64,000 nucleotides of DNA from Escherichia coli (GCF_024223415.1 NZ_CP100500.1); one strand, 5' to 3'. Positions 58,651 through 59,500 are shown, counted from the first letter of the stretch. Numbers and translations: made by a program. Notes: a model not told the origin generated them from the sequence alone.

Positions 58651-58906
58651 TTGGTACCGGGCTTAAAGGTGTCCGGTGGCTGATTGAAAATGGTAAAAAT
58701 ATTTAGACGTCTATATGTCTGGATGTATTTACCACCCCCTAAATGTTTATGGGGGAAAGGGGGCGGTGTTGATCTTTTAGCGCGAAGCGCTGGAACAGGC
58801 TTTTCCAAGAAGACGGGTACATAGGTTAGGTAGATCTCTGTATAGGGAAATACCAGAAGACGCTCAGATGTTTAGACGTCCAGCCGTAAAGATTGGAGGT
58901 GATTTT

Positions 58907-59500
58907 ATGGTTAACAATTTTGCTGATGAAAAATGGATTCCGGTTCCTGTTGCTCCTTACGGCAACGCTTACCTCGTTAGTTCGGCTGGACGCATTCGCG
59001 GTGTTAATCGTGTAGCTGAATCAGAATTTTTTATTCGTCAAATCCGTGGAGTGATCCTCAAAGGGAGGGTGCGTCGGGATGGATATAAGACCGTTAACCT
59101 GAGCTACAAACGAAATCGTCAAACATTTGCCATTCATCGCCTGGTAGCGCTGGCTTTTTGCGACAACCCACACAATCACACTGAGGTTAATCACAAAGAC
59201 GGCAACAAACTAAATAACCACGCATCCAATCTGGAGTGGGTTAGCCACAAAGAAAATATTCAGCACTCAATTCTTACAGGACTCAATAAATCGCAGGGGG
59301 CTGACAACAAGCAATTTAAGGGCCTAATTGTCGCTACAAATCTTTCGACCGGGGAGGAGCAAACTTTTTGCGGGAAAAAGGCGCTAATTAGTGCTGGGTT
59401 TGATCACGGTAGTGTTTATGCGGTTATTGCTGGAAGAGTAAAGTCTCATCGTGGCCACTATTTCAAGCGCCTCCCACTGAACCATGAGGAGGCAGCTTAA
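58907..59500 (+). CDS. HNH homing-type endonuclease (NUMOD4 plus HNH_3)
   Basis: Start at MVNNFADEKWIPVPVAPYGNAYLVSSAGRIRG (NUMOD4-like) with RBS GGAGGTG; HNH core (H-x-V-N-H-K-D-G-N-K-L-N-N...NLEWVSHKEN). Confidence 0.75.
   Translation: MVNNFADEKWIPVPVAPYGNAYLVSSAGRIRGVNRVAESEFFIRQIRGVILKGRVRRDGYKTVNLSYKRNRQTFAIHRLVALAFCDNPHNHTEVNHKDGNKLNNHASNLEWVSHKENIQHSILTGLNKSQGADNKQFKGLIVATNLSTGEEQTFCGKKALISAGFDHGSVYAVIAGRVKSHRGHYFKRLPLNHEEAA

Follow-up and report, generated by a model that had tools for sequence, protein, structure and literature searches.

The DNA examined here is a stretch of 64,000 nucleotides from Escherichia coli (GCF_024223415.1 NZ_CP100500.1), below called the window, which carries a lambdoid prophage at its right end. 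In the early region of this prophage, at positions 58,651 to 59,500, a noncoding stretch of 256 nt separates the open reading frame (ORF) of a phrog_852 protein from that of a putative HNH homing endonuclease, and the latter is directly followed by a helicase gene. Our joint interpretation is that the HNH gene represents a homing element of the I-HmuI family and that repeats in the noncoding stretch are parts of operators for a host amino-acid repressor, MetJ in the window and TrpR in related phages, which flank a conserved module. Judging from sequence comparisons, we give this interpretation a probability of roughly 0.6. Its first half agrees with an earlier sequence-only reading of the same DNA; the second half replaces that reading's account of the repeats.

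Predicted operators at the edges of a conserved noncoding module

The window holds exactly two copies of the motif TTTAGACGTC, one at 58702-58711 and one at 58871-58880. In the extended form AT(A/G)TTTAGACGTC the two copies match at 12 of 13 positions, and the motif ATGT(A)TTTA is found at 58724, 58743 and 58868. The sequence-only reading had reported repeats upstream of the HNH gene; the repeats are real, with the position that it gave for the first exact copy off by 1 nt. The motif search that it had proposed across the prophage was carried out. With one mismatch allowed, the bare 10-mer is not above chance (five found, 2.8 expected in the window); scoring for tandem met boxes is far above it.

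Tandem boxes with an 8-bp phasing are characteristic of MetJ operators according to a comparative study of the MetJ regulon (PMC3228920), and met boxes were scored with a half-site matrix and the per-box and total thresholds of that study, the total threshold being 12.58 bits. Exactly two arrays in the window exceed these thresholds, each composed of four boxes and each holding one copy of TTTAGACGTC. Array 1 (58697..58728) reads AAATATTT AGACGTCT ATATGTCT GGATGTAT and scores 6.1, 12.6, 8.6 and 6.3 bits, or 33.6 bits in total. Array 2 (58858..58889) reads AGACGCTC AGATGTTT AGACGTCC AGCCGTAA, scores 3.8, 9.3, 10.4 and 3.4 bits, or 26.8 bits in total, and stops 5 nt short of the Shine-Dalgarno sequence of the HNH gene. 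We take AGACGTCT to be the met-box consensus of the E. coli MetJ operators. The best array in 100 shuffled versions of the window reached 19.1 bits. When 8.5 kb of the MG1655 genome were scanned, only two arrays emerged, one between metJ and metB (31.2 bits) and one just upstream of metF (24.9 bits), which is where the known metJ/metB and metF operators lie. The likeness to E. coli MetJ operators thus consists in three to four boxes per array that are in phase at 8 bp and include one perfect consensus, with totals in the window that equal or exceed those of metJ/metB and metF under the published criteria. A scan of 520 kb of related loci and of 100 kb from two prophage regions found met-box arrays only at two positions, designated site 1 and site 2, of a module that these phages share; the 50 kb scanned around the Ch1 prophage gave the same picture.

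This noncoding module of about 190 bp lies between phrog_852 and the replication genes in all Fels-1-like helicase-primase phages, with or without an HNH gene, as seen in an intergenic alignment of 62 distinct viral or prophage sequences and loci from other genera. Its order is constant: one or two hairpins after the phrog_852 stop codon, site 1, a G-run tract, GGAA..TTCC, the core CAT.GGTTA(G/A)GTAG, and site 2, which lies 150-170 bp after site 1. The window has a G-rich purine tract GGGGGAAAGGGGGCGGTG (58751..58768, + strand), with a local GC skew of up to +0.45 and a counterpart G-run tract in every relative. It is followed by the small dyads AGCGCGAAGCGCT and TGGAACAGGCTTTTCCA (58779..58807, + strand), of which GGAA..TTCC is invariant in 29 relatives, and by the core CATAGGTTAGGTAGATCTC (58820..58838), which is common to all site types. 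The module has a GC content of 0.39-0.51, and its conservation is at the level of DNA, not of RNA pairing (RNAalifold). Several other features were considered and dropped. A conserved RNA covering the whole intergenic region found no support, since only a hairpin with a UUAAAGG loop covaries and Rfam gave nothing even at E<=10. A long-range stem between the two repeat sites was suggested by folding in one phage, but the inner bases are not complementary in most phages and RNAalifold gave no such helix. A G-quadruplex is not a universal feature, as the met-box type has two long G-runs only.

At these two positions most relatives, including Salmonella phage Fels-1, have 18-bp TrpR-type operators (GTACTAGnnnnCTAGTAC); the met-box type is the rarer one. 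The commoner site has the form GTAC-N10-GTAC; 34 distinct sequences of site 1 and 27 of site 2 give the profile GTACTAG-nnnn-CTAGTAC. A TrpR matrix was built from four MG1655 operators (trpEDCBA, aroH, trpR and mtr), read from the genome as GAACTAGTTAACTAGTAC, GTACTAGAGAACTAGTGC, GTACTCTTTAGCGAGTAC and GTACTCGTGTACTGGTAC, which we take to be established TrpR targets. With this matrix the natural operators score 21-25 bits, or 15-21 bits when left out, and the phage sites score 14-24 bits at site 1 and 12-20 bits at site 2. Tested against the 18-bp dyad GNACTAGnnnnCTAGTNC, the sites of the relatives match with 12-24 bits; those of Fels-1, GTACTAGTTAAGTGGTAC and GTATCGTTAAACTAGTAC, reach 20.8 and 12.9 bits. 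Hits of at least 12 bits in the phage loci fall only at sites 1 and 2, except for one third site in L074, L086 and L087. This TrpR-like sequence, GTACTAGATAGGTGATAC (12.5 bits), occupies positions 3425-3442 between a 124-aa ORF and the helicase start. At a level of at least 15 bits, a scan of 127 kb of E. coli DNA returned the four operators and one phage site, with no off-target hit. The variable centre and the conserved CTAG arms of the phage sites match the natural TrpR operators, so that the dyads share with these both their conserved and their variable positions. They differ from E. coli TrpR operators in being paired about 150 bp apart and in lying outside recognizable promoters. The TrpR type is absent from the window, which has no matrix hit of 12 bits or more. 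A list of the TrpR regulon is available (PMC5343134).

Pairs of TrpR-type or MetJ-type sites occur in at least 12 genera, and both sites are of the same type in every locus examined but one. The exception is a hybrid in Xenorhabdus khoisanae (L192:2089-2282), with two tandem TrpR-like dyads at site 1 (15.5 and 14.6 bits) and the met-box array AGACGCTT AGACGTCC (16.3 bits) at site 2. Met-box arrays without an HNH gene are present in L053, L076, L186, L188, L193-195 and L208, which include prophages of Photorhabdus, Xenorhabdus and Providencia, and the HNH-positive phages of Yersinia have TrpR-type sites. All HNH-positive loci examined in E. coli and Salmonella are of the met-box type, a link that could have arisen by homing-associated co-conversion of the few hundred bases upstream.

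A different architecture is found 3' of phrog_852 in some Xenorhabdus and Pantoea prophages, where two GAGAATGATTATCA-like motifs lie in L187:1515-1631, L191:1061-1174 and L205:1509-1624; one such motif each was found in the region scanned of L203 (1565-1589) and L204 (1556-1580). These motifs resemble Fur boxes, but an interpretation as such was abandoned, as a consensus-match test was non-specific (293 hits in 693 kb). A scan of viral contigs for perfect GTACTAGNNNNCTAGTAC was equally uninformative, returning 78 hits mostly in unrelated environmental contigs. In a T7-like contig unrelated to the module (IMGVR_UViG_2974653390_000001; L113-L115), four perfect intergenic copies of GTACTAGTTGGCTAGTAC probably constitute its own promoter or regulatory repeat.

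The HNH gene and its slot ahead of the helicase

The HNH gene (58907..59500, + strand) encodes a free-standing protein of 197 aa in which domain, structure and alignment searches recognize a NUMOD4 domain, an HNH_3 domain and, less firmly, an I-HmuI-like C-terminal region. Pfam reports NUMOD4 at 3.2e-10 (40.5 bits, cut-off 23.4) and HNH_3 at 2.4e-07 (30.7 bits, cut-off 24.8), and PHROG HNH families match down to 2e-39. The match to the I-HmuI_NUMOD-like family is weak (18.6 bits, cut-off 27). The closest solved structure is that of I-HmuI (PDB 1u3e, E=2.2e-18, over residues 47-187), and the alignment with it reaches residue 169 of 174 and identifies His96, Asn108 and Asn117 as an intact catalytic motif. 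In a family alignment of 122 sequences, consisting of 120 database homologs, the query and I-HmuI, the equivalents of I-HmuI H75, N87 and N96 are kept in 122, 122 and 117 sequences, respectively. The residue equivalent to D74 is Asn in 104 of them, and its presence here is therefore a subfamily trait rather than a sign of decay.

The protein resembles I-HmuI, an HNH nicking enzyme of Bacillus phage SPO1, in an HNH motif that includes the catalytic His and two Asn residues, and in the C-terminal alignment. It differs in the Asp74 position and in that its gene is not intron-encoded, but a free-standing ORF placed between a ribosome-binding site and a start codon. With free-standing phage HNH endonucleases that carry NUMOD4 it shares the N-terminal position of this domain and a sporadic, site-specific occurrence beside a conserved replication gene. 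By itself, the HNH gene adds no more than an ordinary new member to a known family.

The true start of the gene is most likely the ATG at 58907. It is preceded at a distance of 7 nt by GGAGG (58895-58899), and MVN(S/N)F, the N-terminus of all close homologs, begins at this position. The ORF listing gives a longest form of 210 aa (58868..59500, + strand), and the public 210-aa protein P0001 likewise begins at ATG 58868. Since this codon is part of the sequence of met-box array 2 and is not kept in relatives such as L001, the start of P0001 is probably annotated too far upstream. At the other end, the overlap with the helicase gene that the sequence-only reading had seen in TAATG is confirmed, the HNH stop codon TAA occupying 59498-59500 and the helicase ATG 59500-59502.

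The replication module is present in 88 of 5426 complete E. coli genomes, six of which also have the HNH gene, with 85.7% nucleotide identity to the window in the gene and 96-98% in its flanks. Among 84 classified loci the gene is found in five, four of these being viral contigs. The slot between phrog_852 and the helicase is in relatives either empty, with gaps of about 300, 330 or 430 nt, or filled with the HNH gene or with an ORF of about 123-124 aa (phrog_1347). The latter is found in Fels-1 (STM0899) and phi467 and at L002:3585-3959, L004:2056-2424 and L005:1888-2256; a 46-47% identical variant of it goes with met-box sites in L053 and L076. Homologs of the HNH gene adjoin the same helicase gene in phages of Escherichia, Salmonella, Serratia and Yersinia, even where the upstream genes differ, and their proteins are 57-100% identical across the four genera (Salmonella 86%, Serratia 60%, Yersinia 57%).

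In the Yersinia lineage, filled and empty sites align base for base, which allowed clean and exact junctions to be mapped by the comparison with HNH-less relatives that had been proposed earlier. The ORF is inserted between the 5' leader and ribosome-binding region of the helicase (...TTCCTGGAAGAGTGAAACGTAAAGGGG...) and the helicase ATG, and its 3' end supplies a new Shine-Dalgarno sequence (GGAGG) for the helicase. Between the window and the diverged phage L065 the 5' half of the HNH gene is 85-96% identical, compared to about 60-75% for the backbone, in which some conserved stretches are higher. The sporadic presence, the fixed slot, the clean junctions and, in L065, an HNH gene more alike than its flanks form the pattern of a free-standing homing endonuclease, and the assignment of gene 58907-59500 to the I-HmuI family is supported by the sequence comparisons. 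The mobile element postulated ahead of the replication genes in the sequence-only reading thus holds up, being restricted to a minority of otherwise near-identical relatives and occupying the same slot in four genera. The gene is not uniformly present with identical flanks (6 of 88 genomes), nor are the repeat positions vacant elsewhere, as the two sites are occupied in all relatives.

Two further arrangements were noted in this region. At L199:2155-2487 a match to the HNH protein upstream of the helicase is limited to the first 111 residues and is probably a decayed copy. In L205:3493-4204 and L206:3481-4306 an insert of 700-800 bp with another HNH-type protein splits the helicase ORF after about residue 330, near a QALGRGLR motif, and the ORF continues beyond it, so that the helicase gene seems to contain a second homing site.

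By analogy with I-HmuI, an encounter of two related phages would lead the enzyme to nick or cut, close to the helicase start, the allele that has no HNH gene. The HNH gene, probably together with some upstream DNA, would then be copied into the recipient phage by repair.

Candidate binders and other accounts of the repeats

The genes near the module do not follow the type of its sites. Between site types phrog_852 is 98-100% identical, and the DNA of the helicase, primase and phrog_6204 genes about 96%. L001, with met boxes and an HNH gene, and L003, with TrpR-type sites and an empty slot, have the same CI accession and a near-identical Cro. A tblastn search of 50,697 phage records, with TrpR and MetJ of E. 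coli as queries, found only misfiled bacterial contigs and tiny unannotated fragments, with no homolog in genuine phage genomes. Because nearby phage genes do not covary with the site type and no phage homolog of TrpR or MetJ was found, a host binder is the economical explanation. The TTTAGACGTC repeats are thus probably parts of predicted host-repressor operators, for MetJ here and for TrpR in relatives. CI or Cro as binder was rejected, as the OR operators TTTATCGG-N4-CCGATAAA differ in sequence from the sites and CI is identical across site types.

In the mechanism that we envisage, MetJ with S-adenosylmethionine (SAM) in the window, or TrpR with tryptophan in the relatives, would occupy both edges of the module, and this binding would tie whatever the module controls to the methionine/SAM or tryptophan status of the host. 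Two targets of such control can be considered. Since no promoter-like site lies inside the module, transcription of the rightward genes appears to start at pR and to cross the module, and bound arrays could impede the passage of this transcript into the HNH, helicase, primase and Q genes. Alternatively, the repressors could gate a cis-acting DNA element between the sites. Such an element is conceivable because conservation here concerns the DNA and not RNA pairing, and because G is strongly enriched on the strand; a possible candidate is an origin between the two sites.

The sequence-only reading had explained the repeats differently, as origin iterons or as remnants of a homing target. Iterons bound by a phage initiator, be it the helicase, the primase or phrog_852, would suit a module that lies directly 5' of the helicase and primase genes and is kept at the DNA level, so that a cis-acting element such as an origin may lie there. 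However, two site types that are unrelated in sequence stand beside phrog_852, helicase, primase and phrog_6204 genes that are 96-100% identical, and no replication protein covaries with them. The repeats, tandem boxes of 8 bp or dyads of 18 bp, are grouped in two clusters separated by 150-170 bp and do not form a run of equal direct repeats, an AT-rich unwinding region is missing from the G-rich module, and each type scores like genuine host operators of MetJ or TrpR. Iterons are therefore improbable. Least probable of all is that the repeats belong to the endonuclease, either as target-site remnants or as sites for autoregulation of the HNH gene; self-regulation by I-TevI is the model for the latter. 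Array 2 does lie directly 5' of the HNH start, and the HNH-positive loci of E. coli and Salmonella are uniformly of the met-box type, but the same positions are filled with met-box arrays in the HNH-free loci named above, the HNH gene occurs with the other site type in Yersinia, and co-conversion of the flanks during homing explains the E. coli link equally well. Neither proposal for the repeats was thus borne out.

Two accounts retain the operators or their likeness. High-scoring operators that lack an associated promoter could be trans decoys, which at high phage copy number would titrate MetJ or TrpR and derepress host synthesis and uptake of methionine/SAM or tryptophan. The interchangeable and, in L192, even mixed site types would suit sites that are independent of local context. 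A decoy does not need the fixed positions at both module edges seen in some 60 distinct sequences, and we regard this role as unlikely. The resemblance to host operators could also be coincidental, with the dyads bound by a phage protein encoded elsewhere or serving a structural purpose. The operators were identified by sequence similarity, the late regions are mosaic and were not controlled for, and an unrelated T7-like contig has GTACTAGTTGGCTAGTAC as a repeated element of its own. Yet the coincidence would have to occur twice and independently, once for each of two distinct amino-acid repressors of the host; the sites are conserved at the positions at which natural operators are, boxes repeated in an 8-bp phase are the hallmark described for MetJ operators (PMC3228920), and the same consensus is found in phages of at least 12 genera with different accessory genes. 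We doubt, therefore, that the resemblance is accidental, and hold this account to be about as improbable as iterons.

Several observations weigh against host-repressor operators combined with a homing element. E. coli MetJ operators lie at promoters of MetJ-repressed genes, whereas the arrays in the window lie in a prophage early operon beside replication genes and not at a methionine gene, are two in number about 160 bp apart, and have no overlapping promoter that we could find. There is no promoter-like site in 58651-58906, and a consensus scan of 57900-59700 gave a pR-like promoter as its only promoter-like site; a sigma-70 promoter was not seen in the module on either strand, also by manual inspection. 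The operators thus lack the usual overlap with a promoter. In some TrpR-type phages site 2 is weak, at about 12 bits or less. The lack of covariation covers an early region of about 7 kb, and because the late regions are mosaic, as in the whole prophages Ch1 and KC-Dl-1, a distant phage-encoded binder is conceivable. As for homing, no target or immunity polymorphism is associated with the HNH gene; HNH-positive and HNH-negative alleles resemble each other over the first 65 nt of the helicase gene, for which reason the insertion itself probably splits the target site. That the operators are recognized by their similarity to known ones belongs with these points.

Prophage setting and relation to known systems

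The window is E. coli chromosome, with yeiB-yeiG-folE-galS at 20-23 kb (99.9% identity). Two Rfam families score above the gathering threshold in the chromosomal part of the window, naRNA4 at 27958-28035 (88.3 bits) and Peptidase-S11 RNA at 39684-39764 (72.8 bits). The early region of the prophage starts with a gene for an S24/LexA-type CI repressor (57295-57987, - strand). A hairpin with a T-run directly 3' of the CI stop codon (about 57251-57290, - strand) is a likely terminator, and beyond it lie two TTGACA-type promoters that would serve the leftward operon. Between CI and cro, the dyad TTTATCGG-CTTT-CCGATAAA (58020-58039) is a likely CI/Cro operator. The pR-like sigma-70 promoter found by the consensus scan, TTGAAT-17-TATTAT with a TG, lies 5' of cro (58056..58084, + strand). 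Other promoter candidates picked by hand (sigma-70 on both strands, pRE-like leftward, sigma-54 TGGAAC-N5-TTTCC, sigma-E, and T7/SP6-like TATAGGG) are not conserved across relatives, and a sigma-54 site reported at STM0901 lies inside an ORF and is irrelevant.

The sequence-only reading had placed a NUMOD4 and HNH ORF between the cro-proximal genes and the helicase, and the gene order agrees with this. A cro/YdaS-like gene (58107-58394) and the phrog_852 ORF of 97 aa (58357..58650, + strand) precede the HNH gene. The phrog_852 ORF occupies the position of cII, is always 5' of the noncoding module, and had no match in Pfam, PDB or NCBIfam. Downstream of the HNH gene, domain searches identify a superfamily 2 (SF2) RadD-like phage helicase with ResIII/Helicase_C domains and a Cys4 zinc ribbon (59500..61155, + strand), whose start shares one base with the HNH stop codon, and a P4-alpha-like primase with a Zn ribbon, DUF7146 and Toprim_3 (61157..62125, + strand). 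The gene for the phrog_6204 protein follows the primase gene. This replication module is that of Salmonella phage Fels-1, Escherichia phage phi467 and Yersinia phage YP3.

The hairpin that opens the module, ACCGGGC-UUAAAGGU-GUCCGGU with the invariant loop UUAAAGG(U/C) (58656..58677, + strand), occurs once or twice in this location in nearly all related loci. Over 32 distinct instances 87.9% of cells are paired, compared to 70.2% in shuffles (0 of 500) and 25-44% in slid controls. Double changes number 49 cells against 14.4, and six of the seven stem pairs show compensatory changes. G.T wobbles outnumber A.C mismatches by 18 to 5, so the hairpin most likely forms in the rightward transcript. 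Like boxB of lambda nutR, it is a short stem-loop of the early rightward transcript whose loop is invariant and whose stem covaries, and it is preceded by a boxA-like CGCTCCTGA (58642-58650). It differs from boxB in the loop UUAAAGGU, in the lack of a twin in the leftward operon and of an identified N-like gene, and in the two tandem copies of some phages. No match was found in Rfam. The hairpin may be a boxB-like site for a protein.

If the operators are what they seem, a widespread group of temperate enterobacterial phages, of the Fels-1/phi467 type with a helicase-primase module, would have wired the control region ahead of their replication genes to host amino-acid repressors, with TrpR and MetJ operator cassettes interchangeable at two fixed positions, and replication or lytic development would read the supply of tryptophan or of methionine/SAM. 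We put this broader proposal forward tentatively, as a possibility suggested by operator similarity. Such a metabolic input would be simple and direct, would sit at a fixed place of the early operon and could be swapped between tryptophan and SAM sensing. The HNH gene could moreover spread one type of cassette into phages of the other type by co-conversion, and a homing endonuclease would then carry a regulatory cassette along with itself. Many E. coli prophages have such sites, and so does Fels-1 of the model strain Salmonella LT2. A literature search, which covered few subscription journals and is not proof, found no report of TrpR or MetJ operators in the early or replication region of a phage.

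To our knowledge, the reading of host physiology by temperate phages is known for few signals only. These include SOS via LexA and RecA, cAMP and FtsH acting on lambda cII, and quorum signals. Host regulators also act at sites of mobile elements, as LexA does at CTXphi and ArgR at cer of ColE1. In phage control regions, sites for a host transcription factor are known from alphaproteobacterial phages, which carry CtrA sites (PMC9437464). The common ground with these three systems is that a mobile element would co-opt a DNA-binding regulator of its host to read the state of the cell. What would set the present case apart is that the regulators are corepressor-dependent amino-acid repressors, and that their sites come in two interchangeable types at fixed positions.

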